A stretch of DNA of 46,347 bases from an uncultured Clostridia bacterium. Lineage in GTDB: Bacteria > Bacillota > Clostridia > Christensenellales > UBA1242. Where the stretch lies: assembly GCA_947589655.1 (NCBI GenBank), contig CANQCE010000001.1, positions 1-46,347 of the forward strand, in the 5' to 3' direction. Positions within the stretch are counted from its first letter, which is position 1; each line of letters starts with the position of its first letter. A program made the position numbers and the translations under genes. Under the pieces are notes generated by a model. That model saw nothing but the letters and a program-made list of their open reading frames with translations. It searched no databases and was not told the origin of the DNA. Positions 24,020-39,227 of the stretch are shown in pieces.

Positions 24020-25831
24020 TTATTCTTCTTCAAATTGGCTGTTATACAAATCGGCATAAAATCCATTTGCCGCCAATAGTTGCTCGTGATTTCCGCTCTC
24101 CACAATGTCGCCATCCTTGAGCACAAAAATTATGTCGGCGTTTTTGATTGTTGAAAGCCTGTGTGCAATTATGAAAGATGTTCTGCCTTCCATAACCTTA
24201 TCCATGGCCTGTTGCAAGAGCACTTCCGTTCGTGTATCCACGGAACTTGTTGCCTCGTCCAAAATCATCATTGGGCAATTTTCCAGCATTGTTCTGGCAA
24301 TGGTTAAAAGTTGTTTTTGCCCAGCCGAAAGATTTACCGCATCGTCTATAATTGTGTCGTAGCCGTGCGAAAGTGTTTGAATAAAATGGTCCACGCCAAC
24401 TTTTTTGCAGGCTTCAACAATTTGTTCATCTGTTATGTTCTCGGTGTTGTATCTTAAATTTTCTTTTATTGTCCCTTCAAACAGCCATGTGTCTTGAAGC
24501 ACCATGCCAAAAAGTTTATGCACATTTTCTCGCTTGATATCTTTAATTGACACGCCATCAATTTTAATGTCGCCAGAGTTTATCTCGTAAAAACGCATCA
24601 AAAGGTTAACCAAAGTGGTTTTGCCTGCACCTGTTGGGCCGACAATTGCCACCTTTTGCCCAGCCTTAATTTCTGCTGAGAAATCTTTGATAATTGTTTT
24701 GTTTTTATCGTAACCGAACACCACGTGCTGAAAACTTACATCACCCTTCACATTTTCAAGCACCAGGGTTTTGCCACTTTCGTCTGCAAGTTCTTTTGCC
24801 TCCAAAAATTCAAACACACGGTCACTGGCTGCTGAAGTGGATTGCAGGCTTGTAAGCGATTGTGCAATTTGCGAAAGTGGATTTGCAAACAAGCGGACAT
24901 AAATCATAAATGCGGTAATCGTGCCCAAATCTTCGCCGCGGTAGATTGCCAGAATTGCGCCAACAATCACCACTGCAACAAAGCCAAAATTGCCAACAAA
25001 TCCCATGATTGGCCCCATCACGCCTGAAATAAACTGCGATTTCCAACCGCTTGTGTAAAGGCGTTTGTTTATGCGATGGAACTCTTTTTCAGTCTGCTCT
25101 TTTGCATTGAAAAGTTGCACAACGTTGTGCCCAGAATAAACTTCTTCGGCGTGAGCGTTAAGTTCCGCCAAATTCTTCTGGTTTTGAACAAAATACTTTT
25201 GCGAGTGCGTTAAAAAGATAAGCGAAAATGAAAAGCCAATGATTGTTGCGCCAATAACCGTCAGTGCCAAAATCCACTCTGTAACAAACATCATGATAAA
25301 CACGCCAAGGAACAAAATTGTGCTGTGGAAAAGGTTGCCTATGCTTTGGTTCATGCTCTGCCCAACTTGGTCAACATCGTTCGTCACACGGCTTAAAATG
25401 TCACCAAACATGTGGGTGTCAAAATAATTTAACGGCATTCTGTTAATTTTGTGCGAGATATCGTGGCGAAACTTTCTTGTAACTTTTTGAGTTACCGTTG
25501 TTAAAATGAATTGTTGGAAATAAGTTAAAATTGCCCCAGCAACGTAAATGATAACCAAGAAAATTGCAATGTCGGTCACCGCTTTTGTATCAACACTGCC
25601 GGTTGTTCTTAAACCTTGAACAATTAAATTGGTTATATCAGAAATTTTATTTGGCCCTATTATCTGGAAGACCACGCCAACGGCGCCAAGTGCAATGGCA
25701 AGAGCCATCCACCACCAATATTTGCGGCAGTATAAAAGCAGTTTCACCATTGCCCTTTTAAATGAACCTTTTTCTGCTTTTTGTCTGCGCTTTTTTGTTT
25801 CTACAACTTCTGTTTTTACTTTCTTTGCCAT
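24020..25831 (-). CDS. ABC exporter, fused permease/ATPase subunit (heterodimeric multidrug/lipid-exporter type)
   Basis: Six-TM N-terminal half, Walker A GPTGAGKTT, signature LSAGQKQLL, Walker B MILDEATS and H-loop IIAHRLST. Confidence 0.9.
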   Translation of the reverse strand: MAKKVKTEVVETKKRRQKAEKGSFKRAMVKLLLYCRKYWWWMALAIALGAVGVVFQIIGPNKISDITNLIVQGLRTTGSVDTKAVTDIAIFLVIIYVAGAILTYFQQFILTTVTQKVTRKFRHDISHKINRMPLNYFDTHMFGDILSRVTNDVDQVGQSMNQSIGNLFHSTILFLGVFIMMFVTEWILALTVIGATIIGFSFSLIFLTHSQKYFVQNQKNLAELNAHAEEVYSGHNVVQLFNAKEQTEKEFHRINKRLYTSGWKSQFISGVMGPIMGFVGNFGFVAVVIVGAILAIYRGEDLGTITAFMIYVRLFANPLSQIAQSLTSLQSTSAASDRVFEFLEAKELADESGKTLVLENVKGDVSFQHVVFGYDKNKTIIKDFSAEIKAGQKVAIVGPTGAGKTTLVNLLMRFYEINSGDIKIDGVSIKDIKRENVHKLFGMVLQDTWLFEGTIKENLRYNTENITDEQIVEACKKVGVDHFIQTLSHGYDTIIDDAVNLSAGQKQLLTIARTMLENCPMMILDEATSSVDTRTEVLLQQAMDKVMEGRTSFIIAHRLSTIKNADIIFVLKDGDIVESGNHEQLLAANGFYADLYNSQFEEE

Positions 25832-25832
25832 A

Positions 25833-27557
25833 TCACAATTCCTCCTGTGAAAGTTGTGAAAGGGCTATCTCTTGATAAACTGGGCAATTGTGGATAAGTT
25901 CATCATGCGTGCCCATGCCAACCATGTTGCCGTTATCCAGCACAATAATTTTGTCGGCATCTTTAATTGTTCCAATGCGCTGTGCAACAATAAATTTCGT
26001 GGCATTATCTGTGTGTTTTTTAAGTGCCGTGCGCAATTTTCTGTCAGTTTTAAAATCCAAAGCAGAAAAACTGTCGTCAAAAATGAAAATTTCAGGTTTG
26101 CGCGCAATGGCTCTTGCAATGGAAAGGCGTTGCTTTTGCCCACCAGATACATTTGTTCCGCCCTGTGCAATTGGGCTATCTAGCCCCTTCCCCATGCGTG
26201 AAACAAAATTGCTTGCTTGTGCCACAGAAATGGCCGATTTTAGCCCTTCTTCGTCTGCGTTGTTGTCCCCAAAATTGACATTACTCCTCACTGTGCCTTT
26301 AAACAAAACTCCGCGCTGTGGAACATAGCCTATTTTTTTATTCAAGGTTTCAAAATCGTAATCTTTAACATTAACGCCATCCAAATAAACGTTGCCTTCG
26401 GTGGCATCGTAAAGCCTTGGAATAAGGTTGATAAGCGTGCTTTTTCCGCTGCCTGTTGAGCCAATAAACGCAATTGTCTGCCCCTGCTTTGCTTCAAAAG
26501 AGATGTTGTGCAGAACGTATTCGTCTGCCTCTGGATATTTAAACGAAACATTTTCAAAAACAACCGATGTTTTGCCGTCAAAGTTTTCATCTTTATAGCA
26601 ACCCGGAATTATGCTGTCTTTGGTGTCCAAAACCTCATTTATTCTTCGTGCAGAAACAAGCGCACGTGGCATCATGATAAAAATCATGATAAGCAGCATA
26701 AACGCCATTATAATTTGCATGGAAAAACTCATAAACTTGCTCATTGAACCCACAGTGAGCGGCGTGACAATGTAAGCACCTATCCAATAAATTGCCAAAC
26801 TAAGCCCACTCATTAAAAGGTTCATAAATGGGCTCATAATTGCCATAACACGCCCAGCAAACAGATTGGTTTTTGTTAAAATCTGGTTGTATTTGCCAAA
26901 TTTTGCGTTTTGATATTCCTCTGCGTTAGATGCGCGTATAACCCTGATGCCAGTAAGGTTTTCTCTTGTAACACGGTTGATATCGTCAGTCAACTTTTGA
27001 ACCTTTTTGAATTTTGGCAGAGCAATAAGCACAACAATTGTTACCATTAAAACAAGGGACACAATTACAACCGCCGTGGAAACTGTCCACTGCCAACTGG
27101 AATCCACAATTTTTGTTATTGCCCAAACAGCCATGATTGGCGCTTTGATAAGTGCCTGCAAGCCCAAGGCAATAAAAAATTGAACATTCATAATATCGTT
27201 TGTTGTTCTGTTGATAAGGCTGGCGGTGGAAAATTTGTTAATTTCTGCAAGCGAGAAGTCTTGAATTTTTGAATACACCTTCACGCGCAAATTGTAAGAA
27301 AGCCTTGATGCCAAATTTGCCACCAAAAACCCAACAACAATGGCACTTGCCAAACTGCCAAACGCACAAGCAAGCATAAATCCGCCATTTTTAAGCACAG
27401 ACGACATAACAATGTTTTCGCCAACTATTTCGTTTATCATCGCTTCGCTATATTCTGGCAAGGTTAAATCCAGCCAAACTTGCAAAACCACAAAACCCAC
27501 AATAGCGGCTATAACAAGATAATCTATCCATTTTAAATATTTCAGTAATTTCAGCAT
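25833..27557 (-). CDS. ABC exporter, fused permease/ATPase subunit (partner of 24020-25831)
   Basis: Walker A GSTGSGKST, signature VSGGQKQRLSIARA and Walker B IFIFDDSFSALD. There is a 1-nt gap to the downstream partner gene. Confidence 0.9.
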   Translation of the reverse strand: MLKLLKYLKWIDYLVIAAIVGFVVLQVWLDLTLPEYSEAMINEIVGENIVMSSVLKNGGFMLACAFGSLASAIVVGFLVANLASRLSYNLRVKVYSKIQDFSLAEINKFSTASLINRTTNDIMNVQFFIALGLQALIKAPIMAVWAITKIVDSSWQWTVSTAVVIVSLVLMVTIVVLIALPKFKKVQKLTDDINRVTRENLTGIRVIRASNAEEYQNAKFGKYNQILTKTNLFAGRVMAIMSPFMNLLMSGLSLAIYWIGAYIVTPLTVGSMSKFMSFSMQIIMAFMLLIMIFIMMPRALVSARRINEVLDTKDSIIPGCYKDENFDGKTSVVFENVSFKYPEADEYVLHNISFEAKQGQTIAFIGSTGSGKSTLINLIPRLYDATEGNVYLDGVNVKDYDFETLNKKIGYVPQRGVLFKGTVRSNVNFGDNNADEEGLKSAISVAQASNFVSRMGKGLDSPIAQGGTNVSGGQKQRLSIARAIARKPEIFIFDDSFSALDFKTDRKLRTALKKHTDNATKFIVAQRIGTIKDADKIIVLDNGNMVGMGTHDELIHNCPVYQEIALSQLSQEEL

Positions 27558-27690: not shown

Positions 27691-30600
27691 TTATTCTTCG
27701 CTTGGCAATTGCCATTTTAAAATTGGGGCTTGTCCAGTTTGCAAAAGCCAAACTTCTTCGTCAAACCCAAACTTTGCATCATATGGGGCATTTATAATTT
27801 CGCAGTTCTGCTCGCCGCCAAAGCCGCCAATCTCGCCACAAACATTTCCATCATTTGCTATTGCGTAGCAATATTGCATCCTGCCGGAAAGTTGCCCGAT
27901 GATTTGCCCATTTTTTAAGGTTGTGCTAATGCTCACTTGGCAGTAACTGTGTTGAACCGCATCCGCTGTTGCATGCGTGTATCTGCCATATAAGCCGCCA
28001 ACATATCCCTGTTTGCCTTCCGCCGTTATGCTACCAACCGCATAGTTGTTTTGCGAACTAAATTGCCCCTCGCCAATCAGTCCGCCGGCAACAACATTTT
28101 TTGCTTGCCCAGTTACATTAATCTGCGCATTGCTGAACACCTCTTTAACCGCATTATTCTTGCTGGAATCTTTTGCCAAAGCGCCGCCCACAACAACATT
28201 GCCGCTTGCCGCTTGCACATTAATTTGCCCAACATAAGAACTTTGCCATATTAGCGCGTTCTTTTTTTCGCTTGTGTTCTGCCCAACAATTCCGCCAACT
28301 GTCACATCTTTTTCAACCGTCAAGATTATTGTAACTCCGCTGGCACAATTTTTAATTTCTCCCACATTTTTGCCAACAATTCCGCCAACCACTTTGGCAT
28401 TTGTTAAGTTGACATTTCCATTTACAGTGCAATTTTCAATTTCTCCGCTGTTGATTTGTGCAAGTCCGCCAAATATGGAGTATTTCTGAGAAGTGGCATC
28501 AATTACAATGTTCAAATTTTCAACCGTGCCGACATTTTCCTTTAAAAGCGCAGTTTTCAAACCACTTATTGTATGCCCATTTCCGTTTAAACTGCCATAA
28601 AGTTTTATGCTTTTCCAAGTTCTATCTTTCATGTCCAAATCTTTTTCTAACACAAAACTGTAATGCCCTGCATTGTGCAAAAGTGTGGAGAATTCTTTCT
28701 CATTATTTATCTTCATTGTGTTTGGCACAAGATAAAAACTCAGCACAAAAAGTATCACATTTGTCAGCCCCAGCCCAAACAGCGTTAAGAACGCCCTTGC
28801 ATTTCTCTTTTCCAGAACACTTTTCTTAAGCACATAAAAAGTGAAATTGCCAATGGCAATGCAAACGCTGTAAATCATGGTGACAATCAAAAACGTCTCG
28901 TTAAAATACAGATACACCTGTTTTGGCGAGAAAAGCGAAACAATTAATAGCAGCGATGAAAACGCCAGCGGAAAAAACTCCAAAAAGATGCACAAAAATT
29001 TGAGCAGAACCATTCGCCTTCTGGCATTTTCCAAAACATCTTCTCGTGTTTTTATGCCTTTCTTTTCAGGTTCAACATTTATCGTTTTCAAGGACGGCTC
29101 TCTGCCCATTACAGAAAGCACGCTCACAGAGGTGTCAAGTGATAGGTCAAGTGCAGACAACCTTGTTTTAACCCTTGATACAACATCTTCGAACTGGTCA
29201 TAATCTCGGCATTTTTGTATCTCTTGCAAATTTTGTTCAAGCGGTTTAAGTTGCAAGCGATAGTAGTCCACGCCCTTTTTGGCTTTAAGCCCCTCTTGTT
29301 TTTCTATTTCCAGCAAAATTTTTTGATTTCTCATCAAAAAGTCGTTAAGCCTATCCATTATGCCTTTTTTATCATAATCATCAGGAACAAACTCTGAGCG
29401 CTCACCTTGATATAGGTTTGCGCGGCTAACAACGCCAGCGTAAAACTCGTCATGCTCGTCATCGCCAAGTTCAAGCAGCGTTTCCCACTCTGGCAAAGTG
29501 TCTGCCTTTGCTTTGGATGTTACAAGTTCTTGGTCGGTGCGGCAGTGGCATTTTATTTTTATAAGTTGCCAGTAAAGTTCCACCTTATCGGCACATTTTG
29601 AAATTGCAATGGTCATGTATTTTTCGGCTGGCTTAAAATATCGCCAAGCCTGAAATTTTTCTGCTATATCTTTGCAAAGTGCCCCTAACTTTTCGCCGTC
29701 CGACATATAAGAAAGATAAAAATCAATTTGTGCCTGCGCCTCTTGTAAATCAAAGAAAACAACTGGCATAATTTTGCTGATAACCGCACTGACAAAAGCA
29801 TCTCTGGCGTTTTGATTCATGTATTTAAGTGTGTCTTCAAGTTGCTGGCGGTCACGGTAAGTTAAAATGTCTTTTGTGCTTTTAAAGTTCCTCATTAATA
29901 TTGCAAGGTTGCTTTGTTCGTGCCCAGCATCAAGTTCCAAAATTTTATTGTAATAATCTTTATCGTCACTTTTCTGAGCAAGAGAAAAGTAAAAGTTAAT
30001 GAACCTGTCAACATCTTCTTTGTCAAAACATTTAACAACTTTTTGAACAAGTTCGCTGTCCAGCGTTTCTATTGCTTTGTTTTCTGCCGCAGATATAAAA
30101 TCTTCGCGGCTAGGGGTTTTATACGAGGCAAGTTCCAACAAAAACTGGTTGTAAAACTCCGCACTGTCCTGCTGCATTACAAGTTTTTCCCATCTTTCAA
30201 CAAAGTCCTCGGCAAAATTTTTGCTGGCATATCTTAAAATGTTTGAAATTTGTTCTCTGTCCGAAAAATTGCTCAGTTTTTCAAAGAATTCGTCCTCTGT
30301 TCTAATTTTTTTATCACAGAGCAGGCGCGCAAACAAAAGTTCGCTGCTGTATGGGTTTTCTTCCAAAGTTTCGTCCAAAATTTTGTCTGCCGTTTGAAAA
30401 TCGCCATTTTTTAATGCAAGAAACAGCCACTTTGTTTTGCCCTCGCTGCTAACCTCCACATTTTCAACACTGTAATGGCCAAGTTCGTTTGGAGAGATGC
30501 TTTCAACATTGGCATATTCTTTTTTCTTTGGATTAACTCTTTTTAAATTGATAGTTTCAATTTTGGCAGTTTCGATTGCCGCATTTTTTTCTTCAGTTTT

Positions 30601-31443
30601 TACAAGAGTTTCCAAATCTTGAAGCAAAGAAACGGAGTTTATATCAAAAACGCTTTTGCAATTTTGCAAAGTAGGCGGCAACTGCTCTTTTTTTATCTTT
30701 TTCACATCCACTATTAAAATAAGGCTTGTGGATGTTTTTTGTTTTTTGGAAATTCTTAAATTGTATCTTTCTATAATGTGGCGAAAAACGCCCAAGTCGG
30801 TCAAGGAATTTAACTGAAGAATGAGCATTTTACTTGTTTCTAATGCACGGAAAGTATCTTCTTCGTTCTCTTTTGTTTGCAAAAAAAGATTGTAATAAGA
30901 AAGTTCCAATTTGTTTAAAAGTTCGGCAATATTGTTATGTATTTGTGGGTTTTCATCCCCAGCCGTGCAAAAAATGACGTCATACAGTTGCTTTGACGAT
31001 GACATCTCATATGTTCGCTTAATTCTGTCCACCCTTTTTGCCAAATCGGTGTAACTTTTCGCTTCTTCTGGTGGGGCAAGTTCAACCGCCTTTAAAAAAT
31101 CTGAATCGCTTGAAAGGGAAGGTATGCTGTCCGCAAAAAAGCGTGGGCGTCTGGAAGTGCCCCTTTTGTTCGTGAACAAAACTATTTGATTTTTTGCAAG
31201 TGCTTTGCCAAAATAACCTTGAAAAGACAGAGGATACTGCTCGATGATGTTTTTAAATTGTTCCACAGCCTCATCGAACCTGAAGCCTCTGGAAAGTTCG
31301 TTTGCCAAAGCAATTAAAACTTCTTCCTCTTTAGAGGAATTTTCGTCAACATACAAAGAGCCACAGAACATACATTTAACCATGTTCTGCCCAACAACTT
31401 TATATTTTTTGCCTCCGCAGTTGTTGCAAACCCTTTCTCTCAT
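27691..31443 (-). CDS. 1,250-aa multidomain membrane protein: N-terminal zinc ribbon, long cytoplasmic TPR-like helical region, 3 TM helices, extracellular GLUG-repeat domain
   Basis: The ATG at 31443 follows AAGGA. Zinc ribbon CNNCGG...CMFCGSLY. TPR-like segments FRFDEAVEQFKNIIEQYPLSFQGYFGKALAK and GDFQTADKILDETLEENPYSSELLFARLL. TM block RRRMVLLKFLCIFLEFFPLAFSSLLLIVSLF / FLIVTMIYSVCIAIGNFTFYVL / AFLTLFGLGLTNVILFVLSFYLV. The positive-inside rule gives N-in/C-out. The C-terminus has YGSLNGNGHTISGL, then GGLAQINSGEIENC, VGGIVGKNVGEIKNC, VGGIVGQN, VAGGLIGEG and YVGGLYG (GLUG repeats). Confidence 0.85.
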   Translation of the reverse strand: MRERVCNNCGGKKYKVVGQNMVKCMFCGSLYVDENSSKEEEVLIALANELSRGFRFDEAVEQFKNIIEQYPLSFQGYFGKALAKNQIVLFTNKRGTSRRPRFFADSIPSLSSDSDFLKAVELAPPEEAKSYTDLAKRVDRIKRTYEMSSSKQLYDVIFCTAGDENPQIHNNIAELLNKLELSYYNLFLQTKENEEDTFRALETSKMLILQLNSLTDLGVFRHIIERYNLRISKKQKTSTSLILIVDVKKIKKEQLPPTLQNCKSVFDINSVSLLQDLETLVKTEEKNAAIETAKIETINLKRVNPKKKEYANVESISPNELGHYSVENVEVSSEGKTKWLFLALKNGDFQTADKILDETLEENPYSSELLFARLLCDKKIRTEDEFFEKLSNFSDREQISNILRYASKNFAEDFVERWEKLVMQQDSAEFYNQFLLELASYKTPSREDFISAAENKAIETLDSELVQKVVKCFDKEDVDRFINFYFSLAQKSDDKDYYNKILELDAGHEQSNLAILMRNFKSTKDILTYRDRQQLEDTLKYMNQNARDAFVSAVISKIMPVVFFDLQEAQAQIDFYLSYMSDGEKLGALCKDIAEKFQAWRYFKPAEKYMTIAISKCADKVELYWQLIKIKCHCRTDQELVTSKAKADTLPEWETLLELGDDEHDEFYAGVVSRANLYQGERSEFVPDDYDKKGIMDRLNDFLMRNQKILLEIEKQEGLKAKKGVDYYRLQLKPLEQNLQEIQKCRDYDQFEDVVSRVKTRLSALDLSLDTSVSVLSVMGREPSLKTINVEPEKKGIKTREDVLENARRRMVLLKFLCIFLEFFPLAFSSLLLIVSLFSPKQVYLYFNETFLIVTMIYSVCIAIGNFTFYVLKKSVLEKRNARAFLTLFGLGLTNVILFVLSFYLVPNTMKINNEKEFSTLLHNAGHYSFVLEKDLDMKDRTWKSIKLYGSLNGNGHTISGLKTALLKENVGTVENLNIVIDATSQKYSIFGGLAQINSGEIENCTVNGNVNLTNAKVVGGIVGKNVGEIKNCASGVTIILTVEKDVTVGGIVGQNTSEKKNALIWQSSYVGQINVQAASGNVVVGGALAKDSSKNNAVKEVFSNAQINVTGQAKNVVAGGLIGEGQFSSQNNYAVGSITAEGKQGYVGGLYGRYTHATADAVQHSYCQVSISTTLKNGQIIGQLSGRMQYCYAIANDGNVCGEIGGFGGEQNCEIINAPYDAKFGFDEEVWLLQTGQAPILKWQLPSEE

Positions 31444-31452
31444 CAAACATCC

Positions 31453-32601
31453 TTATTTCTTTTTTGTAGTTTTTCTCTTTAAAACATAGCCGTTAAGTTC
31501 TTGGTTATATTTTTCAAATTCAGCCATCTCTTTTGGCGTTACACTTGGCGGCATGGTTTCAAGCACACGCGTGAAATCTTCGTTTGTGACTAAAACAACT
31601 TTGTCGGTGGCAATGGCCTTTAAAAGAGGCTCGTCTTTGGCACGGTCGCAAAGTTCTTCAATGTCGGCGCCGCTATAATTTTCCGTTTGCGCAACAATTT
31701 TGTCTATATCAAAATTTTTGGCAACAGGCACGCCCTTCATGTTCTTTTCAAGCATAAATTTTCTGGCTGGCGCATCTGGAAGTGGAAGATAAATTTTCTG
31801 CGAAAAACGGCCAGAGCGCATGGCGGCAGTGTCCACATCCCAAGGCCTGTTGGTTGCGCCCAAAAGCAAAAGATTTGGGTTTCTTCCGGCAAAGCCGTCA
31901 ATTTGCTGCAAAAACTCGTTCACGCGCTTATCGTTGTGTGTGTCAATTCCACGTTTGCCGAACAAGCCATCCATTTCGTCAATAAAAATAATTGCCCTGT
32001 CTTGTTTGTTGGCTTCTTCAAACAGGGAGTTTATGTTTTTCTCACTTTCGCCCACCCATTTGCTGACAATATCTGAGCCCTTTACAGCATAAAATTTGGC
32101 TTGTGCCTCGTTTGCTATCGCTTTTGCAATCATGGTCTTTCCAGTTCCCGGTGGACCATACAAAAGGATTCCGCCGCCCGATTTTTTGCCATACATTTTA
32201 TACTTTTCTGGATATTTAACAGGGTTCAGCATTTTTATTGTAATTGCCCTTTTAACATCTTCAAGGCCAGCAACATCATCAAAACTGATGTTTGGAATTT
32301 GTGCCGTCTGCCACTGCTTGATGTCTTCGTCTTGTTCCTGTTTTAAGTCTTTTTTCTCTTGTTTTGCTGCCTTTGTGCTGTTGCCAAGGTTATCCGAAAT
32401 TTTAACCAATCCGCGTGCCCTTTCCATGCGAACTTCTTTCAGTTTCCCTTGGCTCTGCTTTGCCATTTGCATCATTGTTTCGCTGGCGAGCAAAAAATTA
32501 CGCTTTGCCAAGGCAACATTGCCCTGATTTCGCGCCTCTTTGCCCTTTCTCATGTAAAGTTCAAATGTGTCAGAAAGCACATTGATGTTTGTTTCTTTCA
32601 T
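31453..32601 (-). CDS. Vps4-like (meiotic-clade) AAA+ ATPase with MIT-like N-terminal helical domain
   Basis: The ATG at 32601 lies 5 nt after GGAG. Walker A GPPGTGKT and Walker B IIFIDEMD. Pore loop SKWVGESEKNINSLFEEA (compare Vps4 SKWMGESEK). LLGATNRPWDVDTAAMRSGRFSQKIYLPLPD (compare Vps4 LGATNIPW...RRFE.RIYIPLPD). C-terminal PPSVTPKEMAEFEKYNQELNG (compare the Vps4/spastin C-terminal helix SV...L..Y..W...FG). The N-terminal roughly 60 aa are helical and A/K/R-rich (KGKEARNQGNVALAKRNFLLASETMMQMAK). Confidence 0.85.
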   Translation of the reverse strand: MKETNINVLSDTFELYMRKGKEARNQGNVALAKRNFLLASETMMQMAKQSQGKLKEVRMERARGLVKISDNLGNSTKAAKQEKKDLKQEQDEDIKQWQTAQIPNISFDDVAGLEDVKRAITIKMLNPVKYPEKYKMYGKKSGGGILLYGPPGTGKTMIAKAIANEAQAKFYAVKGSDIVSKWVGESEKNINSLFEEANKQDRAIIFIDEMDGLFGKRGIDTHNDKRVNEFLQQIDGFAGRNPNLLLLGATNRPWDVDTAAMRSGRFSQKIYLPLPDAPARKFMLEKNMKGVPVAKNFDIDKIVAQTENYSGADIEELCDRAKDEPLLKAIATDKVVLVTNEDFTRVLETMPPSVTPKEMAEFEKYNQELNGYVLKRKTTKKK

Positions 32602-32613
32602 TTGCACTCCAAT

Positions 32614-33216
32614 TTATTTGTTATCGGCCTCGCTGTCAATCTTCTTGCGGATTTCTTCCATTTCTTTGTCGATATTTTCAGATGAAAGTTCGTCTTGGCT
32701 GGCTTGTTCCATGATGAACTTTTCAAGTTCTTTATCGCTCATGGCGTTGCCGTCTTTGTCTTTGCCTGCATTGTAGAAAGTTTCTTGGCTCATCTGCATA
32801 AAGTTGTCCATTTGGTCAGTTTGAGTTTCAACTGCAAGCATGGCTTCTTCAAACTGTGCCTGAATTTTGGTGAACTCTTTGGCATCAGCAAGTTTGCTCA
32901 TCTCCCTTGAGATATCGCTCATGCCACGAAGAAATTCGGATGTCATCATGGTAACATCTTTCATTTGAGCGGTAATTTCAAAATTCAAAAGCATTTCTTG
33001 TGCACGCTTTTGCTGCTGAACTGTCATTTTATAGCCAGAAAGCGCCAAGTTGAATTGTGCGTCAAGACCTTTCATTTTTGCACGTTTTGCCGCATCAATG
33101 AAAACCTGCTTTTGGTCTTCCAAGCGGTTAATCTGCTTGTTCATTGTGTTGATTGTTCTTTTAATCAACATCTTCTTTTCAATTTCTTTTTGTTGTTTAG
33201 ATTTAAAAATTCCCAT
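32614..33216 (-). CDS. ESCRT-III superfamily protein, Snf7/CHMP-like paralog A (200 aa)
   Basis: The N-terminus MGIFKSKQQKE resembles CHMP MGLFGK. The helical-hairpin region KQINRLEDQKQVFIDAAKRAKMKGLDAQFNLALSGYKMTVQQQKRAQ parallels CHMP2/3 (R.l.r....l....k.aakkG......iLAk..vr.rk). MSKLADAKEFTKIQAQFEEAMLAVETQTDQMDNFM parallels the Mn.p.i..im.eFe.q....e...e.m.d block. Acidic C-terminal tail DELSSENIDKEMEEIRKKIDSE. Confidence 0.7.
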   Translation of the reverse strand: MGIFKSKQQKEIEKKMLIKRTINTMNKQINRLEDQKQVFIDAAKRAKMKGLDAQFNLALSGYKMTVQQQKRAQEMLLNFEITAQMKDVTMMTSEFLRGMSDISREMSKLADAKEFTKIQAQFEEAMLAVETQTDQMDNFMQMSQETFYNAGKDKDGNAMSDKELEKFIMEQASQDELSSENIDKEMEEIRKKIDSEADNK

Positions 33217-33219
33217 TTT

Positions 33220-33828
33220 TTATTCCTCCATTTTAATTTTTTTCTTTTTTATTGGCTCAGCATTTTCTTCTAGCAAATCTTTTTGGTCGTTTAAAACATT
33301 TTCTTTTTCAAACAAGGTTAAAATCTCGTCTTCGGTTTTGCCAATGCCATAAATTGGTTGGTTAAGTTCATATGCCGATTGAACCTCTGTGAAAAGTTCG
33401 TCAGCCGAGGTGAGCACATCTTCCGAGGCAATTCTTGTTTGCAAGGCTTTGTTCAAAAATTTTGCCAATCTTTTTTGGTCAACCAGAAGTTCGCTTAAAG
33501 GCACTTTGGTTTGAGTTTTAAAGAATGTGTTGCTATCGTATGCCTCTTTAAGTTTGTTCATAAGCCTTATGTTGTAAAGCAAATACATACCTCGTTCAAT
33601 GCAAGTTTGCTTTTCTTCGTTCAGGTGCGAAATCTTTTTGGCGTAGAAAAGTTGCAAATCTTTGCTCTTTTCTTTTTTGCCCTTGTCAATAAGCGCGTCA
33701 ATTTCTTTCAGTTTTTGATAAACTTCCGCCTCCACCGTTCGCTCTTGCCGCTCTAATTCGCATATGGAATTAACAAGGTCCTCTCGGTTTAAGTTTTTAA
33801 ATTTGTTTCTTCTAAATGGCCACCACAT
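33220..33828 (-). CDS. ESCRT-III superfamily protein, Snf7/CHMP4-like paralog B (202 aa)
   Basis: The aromatic N-terminus MWWPFRRNKF is comparable to the Snf7 N-terminal membrane-insertion motif. All-helical coiled-coil core with LQLFYAKKISHLNEEKQTCIERGMYLLYNIRLMNKLKEAYDS (compare Snf7 AL.aLrrKK..E.ql..i.g....ie.q...le.a..n). The tail is acidic then basic. It is the same size as paralog A and separated from it by 3 nt. Confidence 0.6.
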   Translation of the reverse strand: MWWPFRRNKFKNLNREDLVNSICELERQERTVEAEVYQKLKEIDALIDKGKKEKSKDLQLFYAKKISHLNEEKQTCIERGMYLLYNIRLMNKLKEAYDSNTFFKTQTKVPLSELLVDQKRLAKFLNKALQTRIASEDVLTSADELFTEVQSAYELNQPIYGIGKTEDEILTLFEKENVLNDQKDLLEENAEPIKKKKIKMEE

Positions 33829-33831
33829 ACG

Positions 33832-34191
33832 CTAATACTGTTCCCCCTCTTTTATTTTGTAAATCCTCTCTAACAAGTCTTGATATCTTTTCTTTTGGTC
33901 CTCATCTGCCAAGGCAAGCGCCTTTTCGCACTCTGGCAAATATATTGCACTTTTGTATTTAACTGGCTCGGAATATAAAATGTCTTCATTTGAAATTTCA
34001 AACTTTGCCAGCATAAGCCCCCACCACGCATCTGCACAATCGGGGTCAAGTTCCAGCGCCAATTGAAAGTTCATGTTTGCCTGCTTGAAAAAGCCCTCTT
34101 TTAAATTTAAATAGCCAAGCGTCAACTCTTTTAAAGTGCTTTCTTTGTTTTGCTCTGGCACATTTTTTGATGTTAAATAGGTGCGTTTCAT
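33832..34191 (-). CDS. small TPR-like protein (119 aa)
   Basis: GYLNLKEGFFKQANMNFQLALELDPDCADAWWGLMLAKFEI is a TPR-type helix pair. The same W/F-G-x-x-L-A-K signature recurs in the 1,250-aa protein of the operon. An ATGA overlap with the upstream gene implies translational coupling. Confidence 0.65.
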   Translation of the reverse strand: MKRTYLTSKNVPEQNKESTLKELTLGYLNLKEGFFKQANMNFQLALELDPDCADAWWGLMLAKFEISNEDILYSEPVKYKSAIYLPECEKALALADEDQKKRYQDLLERIYKIKEGEQY

Positions 34192-34598
34192 CCGTTTTGT
34201 TCATCCTTCTTGCGTTGTATTATGTAGGCTTCAATTTCTTCCAGCACCCTAAAACACGTTTCTTGAGTGTTGTCTTTTGCCACCATAATTTTAAGGTCGT
34301 CAAGTTTGTTGGCAATTTTTGTGTCAACAAGTTGCACCTTGTCATTTGTGGTCGGATTGAAAAACCTGATTGTGTCTTTCACCTCCACAAGCCTGCGGCA
34401 AAGTGCATCGTTGCCGTTTGCATAAACAATTATGCTCTCCACATTTGCCACCATGTTTTCAATAAACTTTTTGTTCTTTATAATGCCGCGCGAGCCGCCA
34501 CGCTTTTCGTCAAGCGGCTTTTTTATGTATTCACGAACAATGTAGAAAACCGCAAGCCCAACAATGACAATTAAAGTGATAATGTATAATGCAAGCAT
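34188..34598 (-). CDS. N-terminally membrane-anchored protein (136 aa), function unknown
   Basis: TM helix MLALYIITLIVIVGLAVFYIV, then a basic stretch and a soluble helical domain. A strong RBS GGAGGGGG lies just upstream of the ATG. Confidence 0.65.
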   Translation of the reverse strand: MLALYIITLIVIVGLAVFYIVREYIKKPLDEKRGGSRGIIKNKKFIENMVANVESIIVYANGNDALCRRLVEVKDTIRFFNPTTNDKVQLVDTKIANKLDDLKIMVAKDNTQETCFRVLEEIEAYIIQRKKDEQNG

Positions 34599-34610
34599 AT
34601 TTCCCCCTCC

Positions 34611-35423
34611 TTATAACCTTGTCCCACAAGAAGAACAAAACTTTGAATTTTCTGGATTGACATTTCCACAAACAGGGCAAATATTTTTGCTGTTTGTTTT
34701 AAGCCCACACTCTGGGCAGAATTTGGCACCTTCGCTTAAAACCGCACCGCATCCTGCGCAAATATTGGTTTGTTTTCCGCTTTTTAACGCCTGCAATCTT
34801 TTTAAGTCTTCGCCATCTATAATAATGTTAAGAATGTTAAACGAAAACACGGCAATTCCATACTCGCTTTGCAACTTGTGCGACAGTTGCCCCAAAATTT
34901 TGTCCGACATCTCTTTTTTGCAATTGGAAAGTTGATTGTATGGCACACGATGTTGTTTTATGTAATCTAAAAGGCACAATTCTGTAACCGAAACAACATT
35001 AGATTGCAAACGCTCTTGCAATGCTTCCGCCGTTAAATTTTGAGAAACACCAATCAAATACAAGTAGCACTTTCTTGGGTCGCCAATTTGAACTTCAAAA
35101 TCGCCACTGAAACCAACGCGGTAATTTTCGCCGGCAAACTCGTCAAAAAATGTGAACTTTTGCGCCGTTCCCCAAAGCAATTTAAGTTTTGCCGTTTTGC
35201 TCATAAAAAGCACTTCAAGCACACTGTTTTCATCCGTTTCTTTTTCCAAAAAGTCAGAAATTTGATACTTTCCAGATTTTAAAGTTTGAAGCATTTGCCC
35301 ATCTTTGATAAGAATTGCATTGTGAGTTTCTGGCACAATAAGTGTCGTTTTAGGGCTTTGAACCGCCACTCTGGTGAAAAGTTGGGAATTACTCCCAGAA
35401 AACTGAATTCTATTTTGTTCCAT
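34611..35423 (-). CDS. SPFH (Band_7_1 / B. subtilis YdjI-like) domain protein with two C-terminal zinc ribbons
   Basis: The N-terminal pattern TLIVPETHNAILIKDGQMLQTLKSGKYQI...VLFMSKTAKLKLLWGT...YRVGFSGDFEVQIGDPRKCY...GIAVFSFNILNI resembles the YdjI/'virion core protein'-type SPFH family. The C-terminus ICAGCGAVLSEGAKFCPECG...ICPVCGNVNPENSKFCSSCG has two CxxC-N-CxxC ribbons. Confidence 0.65.
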   Translation of the reverse strand: MEQNRIQFSGSNSQLFTRVAVQSPKTTLIVPETHNAILIKDGQMLQTLKSGKYQISDFLEKETDENSVLEVLFMSKTAKLKLLWGTAQKFTFFDEFAGENYRVGFSGDFEVQIGDPRKCYLYLIGVSQNLTAEALQERLQSNVVSVTELCLLDYIKQHRVPYNQLSNCKKEMSDKILGQLSHKLQSEYGIAVFSFNILNIIIDGEDLKRLQALKSGKQTNICAGCGAVLSEGAKFCPECGLKTNSKNICPVCGNVNPENSKFCSSCGTRL

Positions 35424-35458: not shown

Positions 35459-35488
35459 AGTATAACAAAATTTTTTTATCAAAGTCAA
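35459..35488 (-). promoter_or_regulatory. candidate sigma-A promoter of the seven-gene ESCRT-like operon
   Basis: On the minus strand: TTGACT, 18-nt spacer, TGtTATACT (extended -10). The -10 lies about 35 nt upstream of the ATG at 35423, which has RBS GAGGGA. Confidence 0.4.
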
Positions 35489-35599: not shown

Positions 35600-36064
35600 A
35601 TGCAAAACAATATTGATAAACAAATTTTTAAATATCTAACCAGTCACAATGCCTCTGCCACAGCAAAAATTGAAGGCGGAAGCGCATATCCGCAAATTAC
35701 TGGCGTAGTGGAGTTTTATCAGTTACAAAACGGCGTTTTGGTTGTTGCGGACATAGACAATCTGCCGCAAACAGAAACAAACATTTTTGCCTTTCATATT
35801 CACGAGGGTGGCTCGTGCGAGAACGATTTTTCGCTAACTGGTGGGCATTACAATCCGCAAGGGGCAATGCATCCAAGCCACGCTGGCGATATGCCGCCAC
35901 TTTTTTCAAACGGCGGCAGTGCGTGGCAGGCCTTTTTTACAAACAGAATTTCTGTGAACGAAATAATTGGCAAAACGGTTATCATTCACGACAAGGTTGA
36001 CGATTTTACATCGCAACCGTCTGGAAATTCTGGGAACAAAATTGCCTGTGGAGAAATTAAATGA
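35600..36064 (+). CDS. sodC: Cu/Zn superoxide dismutase family protein, no signal peptide
   Basis: FAFHIHEGGSC, GGHYNPQG, HPSHAGDMPPL, VIIHDKVDDFTSQPSGNSGNKIACGEI. All Cu/Zn ligand positions appear to be present. The N-terminus MQNNIDKQIFKYLTSHNASA is not hydrophobic. Confidence 0.85.
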   Translation: MQNNIDKQIFKYLTSHNASATAKIEGGSAYPQITGVVEFYQLQNGVLVVADIDNLPQTETNIFAFHIHEGGSCENDFSLTGGHYNPQGAMHPSHAGDMPPLFSNGGSAWQAFFTNRISVNEIIGKTVIIHDKVDDFTSQPSGNSGNKIACGEIK

Positions 36065-36093: not shown

Positions 36094-37125
36094 TTAATAA
36101 ATTGTTGCAATGGCGTTCCAGGTGTTTGGTCCAACAATTCCGTCCAGCGCCAGACCTTTTGTTGTTTGATACTGCCGCACTGCTTGCAAAGTTCTCTCGC
36201 CAAAAATGCCGTCAATGTTGCCAACATCAATCTGATTGCTGGAAAGAAGTTGTTGCAAAAACCTCACATACGCCCCACGGCTGCCCTGCCTGACAGTTGG
36301 ATAAGGTGCAAGTGTAAGCAGTGTGCGCCAAGTGTTCTGCCCAACAACGCCATCCACTGCAAGTGAGTTGTCTTGTTGGAACTGCCTAACGGCACTTTCT
36401 GTATTCGCGCCAAAAATGCCGTCAACTGCAAGATTGGCACCATATCCGTTTAACAAGAACTGCAAAAGAAAAACAAAATTGTTGTCATCTCCGCGGCGAA
36501 TTGTTGGGTAGTTCGCCAAATTGTCGCGCGGCAGATATTCCACCCCTAAAAAGTCGCACACGCCTTGGCAAGCCTCCTCGCCAACCTCGGTCTGCCACAA
36601 AGGGTTTAACATTCGGCGTGCTTCTTCCAGATTGGTCATAAACCCAGCCTCAATCAATGCTGATGGGCAGTTTACGCCAGAAAGCACCCCAACATCCAAA
36701 GTTTTAACTCCTCGCCCATTTTGTGGCGTGCCTTCAAGCAAATTTTCGTAAATATCTTGCGCCAGTGCACGGCTTTGGTTTGCACGCGGATTGGTTAAAG
36801 AATAAAAAACTTCAACGCCGGAGGTGTTATTAAATTCTTCGCCAAATGCGTTATACGCAAAAGTGACAAGCGCCGTCAAGTTCTGCCGGTTTATTCGCCT
36901 TACACGCTCAGAAATGCTTATGTCGGCATTTTCTGGCTTGACATCATAAACCGAAAACCCATTGCGCAAATCCGCCTCCAAAAATTTGTTTTTCGCTGCC
37001 CTGTTAAATTCGTTTTCCAAAATGGACCTATTAAGTCCCGGCACAACTGGCGTTCGCTTGCCAGGTGTTGGCGGCTGTGTGCCATGTTCATCGTTACCGC
37101 CTATGTAATAAATTTCGTTTGGCAT
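36094..37125 (-). CDS. MurNAc-L-alanine amidase (Amidase_3-like) with two C-terminal PG_binding_1 repeats
   Basis: Amidase-like core SGVEVFYSL...ALIEAGFMTNLEEARRM. Two peptidoglycan-binding repeats: FLLQFLLNGYGANLAVDGIFGANTESAVRQFQQDNSLAVDGVVGQNTWRTL and VRFLQQLLSS...IDGIFGERTLQAVRQYQTTKGLALDGIVGPNTWNAI. No signal peptide. Confidence 0.65.
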   Translation of the reverse strand: MPNEIYYIGGNDEHGTQPPTPGKRTPVVPGLNRSILENEFNRAAKNKFLEADLRNGFSVYDVKPENADISISERVRRINRQNLTALVTFAYNAFGEEFNNTSGVEVFYSLTNPRANQSRALAQDIYENLLEGTPQNGRGVKTLDVGVLSGVNCPSALIEAGFMTNLEEARRMLNPLWQTEVGEEACQGVCDFLGVEYLPRDNLANYPTIRRGDDNNFVFLLQFLLNGYGANLAVDGIFGANTESAVRQFQQDNSLAVDGVVGQNTWRTLLTLAPYPTVRQGSRGAYVRFLQQLLSSNQIDVGNIDGIFGERTLQAVRQYQTTKGLALDGIVGPNTWNAIATIY

Positions 37126-37229
37126 AAAATTCTCCTTTTCAGCATTTTATATGAAAATTACTTAAATAAATTGAATAAATTTAATTGTAGAAAGTTGACA
37201 TTATTTTTTAAAAGTATTATCATATCCCC

Positions 37230-39227
37230 ATGAAAAATAAAGAAAATGTGGTAAAAGAGATTTCTCTTAACAGAATTATTCTGCCAATTATGTTTATATT
37301 CATTTCCGTGTTCTTGGAAATGGTAAATTTTTTGTATATCGGCTTTAAGTCTGGCTCTGGCGCCCAACTGGTGTTCCCAGCCCAGTGGCTGTTTAACATT
37401 GGTGCAATTTTGGCAATTGCTGGGCTTATTTATCTTGTAAAAAGCCCTAAAGCAATGATTCCAATCTTCTTTTTGTTTTTATCACTCCAAATTGGCATAA
37501 ATGCTTTAAGTGCCAACATTTACGGAATTTTTGGCGACATATTTTCTATGGACTACATCAAACTTGGCAGAGAGGCTGGTGCTGCTGTTCGTTGGGAATA
37601 TATCGATTTTGGCTCAATTGCGATTTACTTTTCAATTTTGGCTGTTGTTATTGTGGCAGTGGTGCTGCTCTTTAAATTCAACAAACGCAAAGTTCACTTA
37701 AAAAGGTTGTCGGCTTTAAGTTTTTCGCTAATACTTGTTCTTCTTGTGGAGGCGTGCGGCATTACAAGTTATTCCTGCCAAATTGTTGCCGTTACAAATG
37801 CAGATTCTGAAACCATAGAGAACAACACAAGTTATCTTTATGAAAGTTTTGCTTTTAAAACCGAGGCTTATAAAGAATTTGGCTATTATGGTTTTTATTT
37901 GAAAAACCTTTGGGATATGTGTTTTGGGAACGTTAAAGCAAACGATGATGAGGTTGAAGAACTTAAAACATATATAGAAGAAGGCAAAACCACTTTTGAT
38001 GAACTTGATGGGCGTTTGGCTGACGACAATTTGATTGTAATCCTTTGCGAAAGCCACGAGTGGTTTGGATATGACCCAATTAACACCCCTAATGTTTGGA
38101 ACCTTATAAATGGCGGCGCAAACGCTTGTGTGTTCGACAATTATCACTCCCATAACAAAACCAACATAAGCGAAGGCATTGTTATGGCTGGCAACAAGGC
38201 CCAGCAAAACGATTTAAGCACCCTTGTTAAACATTATGGATACGATTACGCATACACTTTGCCAAAGCTTTTCAAGGCTGCCCATGCCGACAAAACAGAG
38301 GTCAAGGCAACATATTTCCACACTTGGAAACGCTCGTTCTATGACCGTGACGACACATATTTGGAAGACGGCTACGGCTTTGACGAATACATTTCTGTGG
38401 ACCAATATTCAAAGTATAACTCCAAATTCTTTGGCGATTGGGTTTGCGACAGCGATTTTATTGAAGAATTTAAAGACGATTTTGTTCCTGACCTTCAGGG
38501 CAATGGAAAATTTTTAAGTTTCTTTGCCACAATGACAACACATGGAACTTACGATTATGACAACCCTCGCTACAGTGACCTTTATGAAAAATATGACGAA
38601 AATTACGACGATTTTAAAGCCTGGTTTGAAGATTATTATGCTGAAAAATATGTTATCCCAAAAGATGAAGAATCCCTTTTGCAATTCCGCAGATACAAAG
38701 TTGGCATGATGGAATTTGACAGAACAATCGGCAAAATTTTTGACTTGTTAAAAGAAAAGAATCATCTTGATGATACAACAGTTGTTATGTTCGCCGACCA
38801 CAATGCATACATTGAAAACTTAACTTACAAACTTAAAAATGTTGAAAAAACCGACTTCTCAAACACAAAGGTTCACAATGTTCCGCTTATAATTTACAAT
38901 TCAAAACTCACGCCGGGAACATATTCCAATTTCTGCAACACTTACGATGTTTTCCCAACCATCGCTGAACTTCATGGGCTGTGCTACAACAAAAATTTGG
39001 CGCAAGGATACAACCTGTTCTCCGACAGTATAAAAAATTCGTTCTTTGCTTCCAATTTGGGTGGGATGTTCACAGATAAGTTTTACAGCAAAAACATTTC
39101 AGACGTGGTTTCGCTTAAAGAAAACTTTACAGCAGATGACCTTGCACAGTTCAAAAGCCAAGCAGAAAGGTTTTATCAGCGACAGAAAAAGTTAGAGGCC
39201 ATATATGTTAAAAACTTGGCAATTTAA
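37230..39227 (+). CDS. LTA synthase (LtaS) / sulfatase-family membrane protein
   Basis: Five N-terminal TM helices followed by an extracellular alkaline-phosphatase-superfamily domain (LIVILCESHEW, TMTTHGTYDY, VVMFADHNAY). The architecture is typical of LtaS-family phosphoglycerol transferases. Confidence 0.75.
   Translation: MKNKENVVKEISLNRIILPIMFIFISVFLEMVNFLYIGFKSGSGAQLVFPAQWLFNIGAILAIAGLIYLVKSPKAMIPIFFLFLSLQIGINALSANIYGIFGDIFSMDYIKLGREAGAAVRWEYIDFGSIAIYFSILAVVIVAVVLLFKFNKRKVHLKRLSALSFSLILVLLVEACGITSYSCQIVAVTNADSETIENNTSYLYESFAFKTEAYKEFGYYGFYLKNLWDMCFGNVKANDDEVEELKTYIEEGKTTFDELDGRLADDNLIVILCESHEWFGYDPINTPNVWNLINGGANACVFDNYHSHNKTNISEGIVMAGNKAQQNDLSTLVKHYGYDYAYTLPKLFKAAHADKTEVKATYFHTWKRSFYDRDDTYLEDGYGFDEYISVDQYSKYNSKFFGDWVCDSDFIEEFKDDFVPDLQGNGKFLSFFATMTTHGTYDYDNPRYSDLYEKYDENYDDFKAWFEDYYAEKYVIPKDEESLLQFRRYKVGMMEFDRTIGKIFDLLKEKNHLDDTTVVMFADHNAYIENLTYKLKNVEKTDFSNTKVHNVPLIIYNSKLTPGTYSNFCNTYDVFPTIAELHGLCYNKNLAQGYNLFSDSIKNSFFASNLGGMFTDKFYSKNISDVVSLKENFTADDLAQFKSQAERFYQRQKKLEAIYVKNLAI

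Follow-up and report, generated by a model that had tools for sequence, protein, structure and literature searches.

Several bacterial membrane proteins, among them PspB/PspC, LiaI and YdjG/YdjH/YdjI of Bacillus subtilis, are encoded together with a protein of the ESCRT-III superfamily (ESCRT stands for the endosomal sorting complexes that are required for transport) and are thought to recruit it to the membrane (PMC8581546; PMC11237479). In B. subtilis, the SPFH/zinc-ribbon protein YdjI links PspA to the membrane (PMC8581546). Snf7-type proteins have been described as archaeal and eukaryotic (PMC8281802), and a review describes bacteria as apparently lacking Vps4-like ATPases (PMC7619361), but a survey mentions scattered bacterial cases (PMC11237479). 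In one of them, a bacterial Vps4-like ATPase is encoded beside a tetratricopeptide repeat (TPR)-containing membrane protein, suggesting action near the membrane (Ravi et al. 2024, PMC11237479). Here we analyzed a 46,347-nucleotide (nt) stretch of DNA from an uncultured Clostridia bacterium (GenBank assembly GCA_947589655.1, contig CANQCE010000001.1), hereafter called the window, and in particular a 1,250-amino-acid (aa) membrane protein, BIG, whose gene lies at 27691..31443 on the minus strand (stop codon included). The gene stands next to a module at 31453-35423 of a Snf7-type ESCRT-III protein, a CdvC/Vps4-like ATPase and a YdjI-type SPFH protein, which is carried by a whole clade of gut Clostridia (at least 57 species), and BIG is predicted to be the only component of this module that spans the membrane and reaches outside. 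We propose, with a confidence that stands at about the halfway mark, that BIG is a receptor-like subunit which serves a bacterial ESCRT-III/Vps4-like system in targeting or sensing. A literature search turned up no paper describing the protein or its operon.

The first-pass annotation of this DNA had proposed a gene at 27691-31443, and the open reading frame (ORF) proved to be real, with 1,250 aa encoded on the minus strand from an ATG at 31443. An AAGGA resembling a ribosome-binding site (RBS) lies 6 nt upstream of this ATG, making it the likely start, and residues are numbered from it here; the mechanically called ORF (27691..31446, minus) begins one codon earlier, at a TTG. The product is identical to database protein P0001 (1,250 aa) and has 100 full-length homologues at 33-77% identity. 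BIG is the 3′-terminal member of seven packed minus-strand genes running from 35423 down to 27691, which are spaced by gaps of 3-12 nt and one overlap of 4 nt. Nine nucleotides separate the ATPase stop codon from the BIG start codon, which has its own RBS-like site. Upstream of the cluster, at 35459..35488 on the minus strand, we found a promoter-like site (TTGACT, 18 nt, TATACT with a TG extension) that is a consensus match only, at 10 of 12 positions. The annotation had also called this the last gene of the operon. That point is not established: the 133-nt gap between BIG and two downstream genes for MsbA-like ABC exporters (24020-27557, minus) holds a promoter-like site and no terminator-like site.

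The same annotation had spoken of ESCRT-like machinery, which was borne out for the 200-aa protein encoded at 32614..33216 (minus). An exhaustive search with this protein gathered 321 representative relatives, and a profile of 89 relatives matched CHMP2A at E 5.6e-6 (residues 8-143 against 5-143), with weaker colinear matches to CHMP3, CHMP1B, CdvB and an Asgard ESCRT-IIIB. Pfam Snf7 was matched by 14 of 89 distant homologues, at best with 1.4e-9 and covering model positions 5-164 of 171; the window protein itself had no direct Pfam match, and a word-indexed search with it returned only close relatives, none with Pfam labels. We call it a Snf7-type ESCRT-III protein because the CHMP/Snf7 matches are colinear and no PspA/Vipp1 entry was found among the profile matches of the family. 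The family consensus also keeps a C-terminal IxxxLxxL pattern, which we take to resemble a MIM1 helix. The adjacent 384-aa ATPase (31453..32607, minus) is a Vps4/CdvC-like AAA protein that aligns end to end with the NCBIfam CdvC model (residues 11-369 against positions 7-366 of 370) with a score of 205 bits, which is below the cut-off of 650, and it reaches 19.5 bits for Vps4_C, where the cut-off is 21.3. The first gene of the operon (34611..35423, minus) encodes an SPFH protein of the YdjI type, with Pfam Band_7_1 at 2.3e-13 and a C-terminal double zinc ribbon (Zn_Ribbon_1 and DZR).

The linkage of BIG to these genes was followed in a scan of one genome per species, which yielded 57 loci, and with one metagenome contig added the set comprised 58. 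All 57 genome loci belong to uncultured gut Clostridia, including Ca. Caccovivens, and the metagenome scan likewise returned in-clade loci only. All six upstream genes were present in the same order in 54 of the 58 loci, the remaining 4 being cut by contig ends, so that every locus with enough upstream DNA (54/54) keeps the same seven genes. Seen from the Snf7-like side, a TPR protein of 1,238-1,258 aa followed the ATPase in 10 of 10 places. Co-occurrence with the ATPase and Snf7-like genes, which the first-pass annotation had tied to its proposal, is thus complete within the clade, and it survives a changed gene order in a second lineage described below. The ABC-exporter genes were found in 48 of the 58 loci and are clearly missing in at least five, where a pyruvate formate-lyase (PFL) gene follows directly. 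The ESCRT-III-like genes are 72-93% identical, and the operon is flanked by housekeeping genes. No relatives were found when viral contigs were scanned with the BIG alignment.

We then modeled the large N-terminal part of BIG, for which an AlphaFold model of residues 1-809 gave a predicted local distance difference test score (pLDDT) of 83. In order, the model shows a zinc ribbon, a pair of TPRs, a beta-hairpin with two helices after it, an alpha/beta domain of five strands, a linker, an all-alpha solenoid and three long helices. The earlier description of this part as about 800 aa of helical repeats was therefore inaccurate, since residues 152-291 form the alpha/beta domain and residues 292-333 a low-confidence linker. 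The N-terminal CxxC...CxxC ribbon of that description held up well. It occupies residues 1-33 (31345..31443, minus), its cysteines (C6-x2-C9 and C24-x2-C27) are invariant or at least 90% conserved in alignments of 34 to 89 homologues, and three short strands (14-18, 21-24 and 30-32) are seen in the model. With 82% family identity, it is the most conserved region of the protein.

The zinc ribbon is followed by a TPR module with the F/WGxxLAK signature, a beta-hairpin and helices (residues 37-147; 31003..31335, minus). Pfam TPR_14 matched residues 42-82 at 24.9 bits (cut-off 23.5) and also matched 32 of 38 family members. A TPR signature shared with the 119-aa TPR protein encoded at 33832..34191 (minus) had been remarked on, and the similarity in fact extends over some 90 residues: residues 50-142 of BIG align with residues 30-114 of the smaller protein at 29% identity (BLASTP, E 2e-5), making the two paralogous in this part. 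We note that the 119-aa gene shares a 4-nt ATGA overlap (34188-34191) with the 3′ end of the preceding gene, which encodes a 136-aa protein with one N-terminal transmembrane helix (34188..34598, minus); the overlap suggests translational coupling.

The alpha/beta domain (residues 152-291; 30571..30990, minus), which the first-pass annotation overlooked, consists of five strands alternating with helices and is derived from a TIR domain. A profile search with the cytoplasmic region returned one distant relative, P0227, whose architecture is a zinc ribbon, a TPR, a Pfam-verified TIR_2 domain (residues 158-280), further TPR, one transmembrane helix and an ectodomain. The first 400 residues of BIG align to P0227 with an hhalign probability of 99.1%, and the alpha/beta domain alone aligns to P0227 residues 152-296 with a probability of 96.3% (E 1.9e-9); this segment of P0227 holds its TIR_2 (PF13676) at 42.9 bits. 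Moreover, in an alignment with a full-length orthologue at locus L067, the domain falls colinearly on the TIR_2 there. We consider it homologous to TIR_2 because of these two results, the alignment to the verified domain of P0227 and the colinearity with the L067 protein. The TPR module likewise precedes TIR_2 in P0227 and in the related proteins of locus L059. Direct searches were negative: no Pfam TIR model matched residues 150-295 of BIG at E<=10 or any of 38 family members directly, and a PDB sequence search with a clade profile of the domain, which is of low diversity, gave no match. With single sequences, neither Pfam nor NCBIfam matched the TIR-like region, the ATPase's MIT-like N-terminus or the 200-aa and 202-aa proteins of the operon, and PDB searches gave chance-level matches only. 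The glutamate of the WxxxE motif (WVKNEW in P0227 and the L067 protein) is replaced by Ile in the window protein and by Leu, Val or Ile in 35 of 35 aligned family members. The domain is probably not an NADase, an inactivity that we only infer because an acidic residue (D/E) two positions after the lost glutamate is conserved in the family.

Downstream of the TIR-derived domain, the low-confidence linker (residues 292-333; 30445..30570, minus; pLDDT below 50 at residues 322-331) contains the motif [ED]LG[HNS]YxV[EDQ]N at residues 319-328 (DNA 30460-30489), preceded by PxKKEY and with G322 and N328 invariant. A conserved motif in a linker that the model leaves disordered is typical of short docking motifs, and we regard it as a candidate docking peptide. 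The TPR-like solenoid (residues 334-680; 29404..30444, minus) is built from helices modeled at pLDDT 80-95, and 20% of its columns are at least 90% conserved. Three long helices (H692-720, H722-744 and H748-764, together residues 692-764; 29152..29370, minus) then form a stalk before the membrane. Foldseek searches with the 809-residue model matched only generic TPR solenoids (APC/C, IFT-A, SKI3 and OGT) at E ~1e-5 and low template modeling scores (TM-scores), and these swamped the search such that the alpha/beta domain was left unmatched. Family identity is about 50% for the TPR module and solenoid and 31-34% for the TIR-derived domain.

The three hydrophobic helices proposed earlier, with the N terminus inside and the C terminus outside, are corroborated by hydropathy, the structural model and charge counts. 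They span residues 812-838, 850-872 and 883-906 (28726..29010, minus), and the mean number of K+R over 34 sequences is 4.9 before the first helix and 4.8 in loop 2, compared with 1.0 in loop 1 and 1.2 after the third helix. Because of these positive-inside charges, the odd number of helices and the absence of a signal peptide, the topology is predicted to be N-in/C-out, with the following beta-helix outside. A cytoplasmic location of the GLUG region, which would have spoken against the first-pass proposal, is not what charges and helix number (three here and one in the distant orthologue, odd in each) predict.

This C-terminal part is a GLUG-type right-handed beta-helix (residues 909-1217) with a cap reaching to residue 1250 (27694..28719, minus); its entry motif, NGNGHTISGL, lies at residues 953-962. 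An AlphaFold model of residues 799-1250, computed from 89 sequences, showed three long helices that lead into a parallel beta-helix, at pLDDT 96.2 and a predicted TM-score (pTM) of 0.91. By Foldseek against the PDB, the beta-helix matched BACOVA_03286 (3n6z) at E 1.4e-6, with a TM-score of 0.41 when normalized to the query and 0.52 when normalized to the target, the Streptococcus pneumoniae IgA1 protease beta-helix (6xja) at E 5.9e-4 and 6xjb with a root mean square deviation of 3.6 over 306 columns, as well as the beta-helix of the G. haemolysans IgA1 protease and the binding region of the L. reuteri SRRP. Against viral structures, Foldseek returned only generic beta-helices. Seven GG-rung motifs are spaced 28-36 aa apart, with one gap of 57; none of 2,000 shuffled sequences reached seven, and the maximum was two. 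Pfam Glug reached 15.6 bits in the window protein (residues 1019-1040), below its cut-off of 20.5, and matched 17 of 38 relatives at E<=0.05 (best 8.1e-8), with Pectate_lyase_5 matched in 7 of 38. The GLUG repeats named in the first-pass annotation are thus upheld by the model, the structural matches and the rungs, and both TPR and GLUG have profile as well as structural support. The ectodomain has a family identity of 33% and evolves faster than the TPR/solenoid modules and the zinc ribbon of the cytoplasmic part, which fits surface exposure.

Beyond the clade, a recurring core was found near distant Snf7-like proteins. It consists of an SPFH protein, a small protein, a protein of about 200 aa, a Snf7-like protein and a Vps4-like AAA protein, accompanied by varying accessories, and its SPFH protein has a zinc ribbon in all but L063. 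At L067, a 1,347-aa protein is orthologous to BIG over its full length (hhalign probability 100%, E 6.8e-44 over residues 6-1112). Its TIR_2 exceeds the Pfam cut-off and retains the glutamate, and the protein has one transmembrane helix and an ectodomain of the Peptidase_M26_N/GLUG type. Its gene lies upstream of that for the SPFH protein, not downstream of the ATPase gene, and stands at the 5′ end of an SPFH-x-202-Snf7-Vps4-like module; because the orthologue is linked to the core in this other gene order, the linkage survives gene reshuffling. The L067 ATPase exceeds the Vps4_C cut-off (29.9 bits), the operon contains a homologue of the 136-aa protein without a transmembrane helix and no separate 119-aa gene, and further along it encodes a trypsin-like protease as well as a BrxL-like ATPase. 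At L063, the ATPase gene is followed by one for a 1,207-aa protein with a zinc ribbon-TPR-TIR-like head (probability 86%, E 4.7e-6) and LRR_5 repeats. The L084/85 core is accompanied by leucine-rich repeat (LRR) proteins and by a trypsin-like protease with an N-terminal zinc ribbon and a C-terminal transmembrane helix as its anchor. Finally, four paralogous zinc ribbon-TPR-TIR_2 proteins surround a 590-aa Band_7_1 gene in another Firmicute (L059:3642-17225); P0227, which belongs to this locus, has one transmembrane helix by hydropathy. No Snf7-like or AAA gene was found within 10 kb of L059, which suggests that the TIR-SPFH association is independent of ESCRT-III.

We also observed that trypsin-like protease and/or BrxL-like (BREX Lon-type) ATPase genes recur in the related modules (L067:9997-12183, L084:11788-12708, L060:2097-3020 and L061:5151-6581), with the BrxL-like ATPase in L061 and the protease in L060 and L084; in these modules, they replace or supplement the large TPR protein. 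In addition, a number of Snf7-like domains are N-terminally fused to other proteins. The partners are RuvB-like AAA domains in P0278, P0339, P0357, P0289 and P0298, with a NERD nuclease also present in P0278, P0339 and P0357, and FtsK/SpoIIIE ATPase domains in P0283, P0288, P0290, P0292 and P0294. A further fused distant homologue of the 200-aa protein is encoded at L063:6093-7886. We know of no earlier description of fusions between Snf7 domains and nucleic acid motors.

From these data, we favor the view that BIG fixes where, or upon which outside event, the ESCRT-III-like polymer would assemble, the polymer then being turned over by the Vps4-like ATPase. The 810 cytoplasmic residues would act as a platform docking to the core module, and the zinc ribbon and TPR module would be the likeliest handle, since they are best conserved and zinc-ribbon heads of a similar kind are carried by further accessory proteins in related operons. 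At the membrane's outer face, within the zone of the cell wall, the beta-helix of about 340 aa may bind a wall, glycan or foreign surface ligand; we infer ligand binding because the closest structural relatives are adhesive or substrate-holding beta-helices and no catalytic site is known. Binding, the ligand and the direction of signaling are likewise read from gene context and architecture. As a whole, the design, with a repeat ectodomain, a transmembrane segment and a cytosolic TIR-derived platform for oligomerization, resembles that of a receptor. The first-pass annotation had labeled the protein a possible inside-out adaptor, a term at odds with its own description, as a path from an extracellular cue to cytoplasmic assembly runs outside-in. 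A more specific version of the proposal, which we put forward only tentatively and consider unlikely, is that BIG is the receptor arm of a bacterial outside-in ESCRT pathway, a module in the style of a Toll-like receptor wired to ESCRT-III and descended from a conflict system with active TIR. In that version, a wall, host-glycan or phage ligand would cluster the beta-helix, and the signal would be transmitted via the transmembrane helices. The TIR-derived, TPR and zinc-ribbon platforms would be brought together and nucleate the Snf7-type polymer on an SPFH microdomain, and the Vps4-like ATPase would remodel the polymer to cut or repair the membrane.

Several observations weigh against the favored assignment. 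The function is assigned by guilt of association, from gene context and architecture only. The AAA core of the ATPase is as similar to Cdc48 D2 as to Vps4, and its MIT-like N-terminus (100 aa) has no Pfam match of its own. Another operon protein, of 202 aa, was not called as ESCRT-III, as hhalign against the Snf7-like family gave a probability of 3%. No conserved polar pocket was identified in the beta-helix. By hydropathy, the 1,207-aa protein of L063 shows no transmembrane helix, so that the shared head is not always carried by a transmembrane receptor; for this reason, we dropped the argument that variable ectodomains on a common head prove a receptor family. Furthermore, no homologue was detected beside the core in L084/85, nor in L061/62 as far as the contigs reach. 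Because related core modules exist without it and the core evidently can function in its absence, BIG is better described as an accessory subunit than as an obligatory adaptor.

The outgroup modules bear on the alternative that BIG is, or was, the sensor of a conflict system, whose ectodomain would detect phage adsorption or wall damage and whose TIR platform would oligomerize, the core then repairing or shedding the membrane patch; the window clade would have a domesticated version with a dead TIR. Among the outgroups, the nearest relatives have retained a canonical TIR_2 and its WxxxE glutamate, four zinc ribbon-TPR-TIR_2 paralogues accompany the Band_7_1 protein in L059, and a trypsin-like protease and a BrxL-like ATPase (L067), the BrxL-like ATPase (L061) or the protease (L060 and L084) sit with related cores. 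The nature of the distant Snf7-like fusions (NERD with RuvB-like AAA, and FtsK/SpoIIIE), some of which adjoin SNF2 helicases or an HTH_17 gene, and the fast evolution of the ectodomain also agree with a role in conflict. This picture changes within the clade itself, where the catalytic glutamate is lost in every family member and the locus is vertically conserved across 57 species between housekeeping genes (PFL, LtaS-like and amidase). The high identity of the ESCRT-III-like genes is unlike typical defense islands, and the family was not found on the scanned viral contigs. In PADLOC-DB, no model matched BIG or five partners, the small ones included, and the ATPase matched only generic AAA entries (IetA and TRIP13). 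We consider a conflict sensor unlikely, if still worth keeping in mind. A mobile defense island was rejected for the window clade on its housekeeping flanks and vertical conservation and is kept as a hypothesis of ancestry: the intact TIR, proteases and BrxL-like ATPases of the outgroups suggest descent from a stress or conflict system, the window clade having a pared-down version of it whose TIR is degenerate and which has become fixed at a housekeeping locus.

Other alternatives turn on what the ESCRT-III/Vps4-like machine does. If it buds vesicles or remodels membrane, BIG could be its selected cargo, decorating vesicles or the surface of the cell with an adhesive beta-helix. In surface proteins, GLUG and Pectate_lyase_5 beta-helices serve for adhesion or for holding substrates, a large cytoplasmic tail whose flexible linker bears a conserved linear motif is reminiscent of a sorting signal, and archaeal Snf7/Vps4 systems have been linked with vesicle release (review PMC7619361). 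A conserved scaffold of 800 residues, however, far exceeds the needs of a sorting signal, and its most conserved part is the zinc ribbon, of the kind borne by other accessory proteins of related operons, which makes the cargo explanation improbable to us. A part in division or envelope growth, with the ectodomain reading the status of peptidoglycan or teichoic acid at the septum and positioning the polymer for scission as CdvA positions CdvB, seems less probable again. It would suit a core that is clade-wide, vertically inherited and highly conserved, and Snf7/Vps4 drives division in Sulfolobus (review PMC7619361). The window neighbors include an Amidase_3/PG_binding protein and an LtaS-like sulfatase, but these wall genes are either on the opposite strand or not part of the operon, and outgroup modules with proteases and BrxL-like ATPases are unlike division machinery. 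The least probable explanation, in our estimate, is that BIG is a protein of the surface or wall which has no relation to the module and simply shares its transcript, its synteny being clade-specific and free of functional coupling. All 57 genome loci fall in one clade, so the gene order could be inherited, and the downstream ABC-exporter and PFL genes are likewise syntenic in most loci. Yet ABC genes have been lost in at least five loci and BIG in none, only 9 nt and an RBS of its own separate it from the ATPase gene, and a paralogue of its TPR module is itself an operon gene. The L067 orthologue is linked to the same core in a different order and genomic setting, and a zinc ribbon-TPR-TIR-like protein follows the ATPase in L063.

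Some further features of the window deserve mention. The 202-aa protein is a coiled-coil protein (33220..33828, minus) that is 71-89% identical across the clade and had no Pfam or PDB match, either as a single sequence or with a clade profile of low diversity; its sole link is a weak bridge via an L060 protein that is Snf7-like. In its N-terminus (MWWPFRRNKFK...) and its length it is reminiscent of ESCRT-III, of which it is possibly a divergent paralogue. On the plus strand, adjoining the operon, a gene for a Cu/Zn superoxide dismutase is found at 35600-36064 in this presumed anaerobe. Beyond it, at 36094-39227, lie the genes for the Amidase_3 protein, which has three peptidoglycan-binding repeats, and the LtaS-like sulfatase. 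Elsewhere, a pseudouridine synthase (PF00849) is split over ORFs 18415-18834 and 17950-18384 (17950-18834, minus) and could reflect a frameshift, a pseudogene or an assembly error.

If BIG does target or trigger the polymer, it would offer a handle on what directs ESCRT-III-family polymers of prokaryotes to their sites of assembly: its defined ectodomain, the zinc-ribbon/TPR head and the linear motif. It also links TIR membrane proteins, SPFH scaffolds and ESCRT-III in one evolutionary series, from a version with intact TIR and proteases to a housekeeping version with an apparently dead TIR. Were it only an adhesin hitch-hiking in the operon, it would be of minor interest.

How BIG relates to described systems differs from part to part. 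Its ectodomain has the same right-handed fold as known GLUG beta-helices (3n6z; the IgA1 proteases 6xja and 7uvk; PF07581, Peptidase_M26_N, Pectate_lyase_5 and the SRRP 5nxk), with which it shares GG-rung repeats, a DGNGHxI entry motif and a predicted extracellular location. In contrast to them, BIG lacks a protease domain, a signal peptide and a sortase signal, and its beta-helix is the C-terminal ectodomain of a protein with three transmembrane helices and an 810-aa cytoplasmic scaffold. The head, with its zinc ribbon, TPR/WGxxL module, TIR domain and the TPR after it, is homologous to that of the zinc ribbon-TPR-TIR_2 membrane proteins of Firmicutes (P0227 with the L059 paralogues, and L067; hhalign probability 99-100%), which are also associated with Band_7_1 SPFH genes, and the 1,347-aa L067 protein additionally shares the solenoid, the transmembrane segment and the GLUG ectodomain. 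These Firmicutes proteins keep the WxxxE glutamate and reach the Pfam TIR_2 cut-off, and P0227 and the L067 protein have one transmembrane helix, whereas the window family has Leu, Ile or Val at this position and three helices; the L059 proteins differ further in having other ectodomains and no Snf7/AAA genes nearby.

The likeness of BIG to PspBC, LiaI and YdjGHI, compared here by description, would be one of function. The YdjI-type Band_7_1 plus zinc-ribbon protein is common to the window operon, but the Psp, Lia and Ydj systems have PspA/LiaH instead of a Snf7-type protein, no Vps4-like ATPase, and small anchors without a TPR/TIR scaffold or large ectodomain. In the case closest in gene content (PMC11237479), again compared by description, snf7 is displaced, whereas the window operon keeps its Snf7-type gene, and relative to the TPR membrane protein reported there BIG has three transmembrane helices, a zinc ribbon, a TIR-derived domain and a GLUG ectodomain. 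CdvA, ESCRT-II/Vps25 and LEM2-CHMP7 are site-defining nucleators of ESCRT-III, and LEM2 is an integral membrane protein; this would be a functional analogy without homology, as these factors rely on domains of the winged-helix or MSC type together with known binding peptides, none of which was found in BIG. Finally, Toll-like receptors follow the same logic of parts, in that a transmembrane portion connects an external solenoid ectodomain with an internal domain of the TIR family; we treat this as an analogy and not as orthology. Their chain order is the opposite, and they have an LRR ectodomain and a single transmembrane helix, whereas BIG would combine a beta-helix outside with a degenerate-looking TIR domain some 500 residues away from the membrane.

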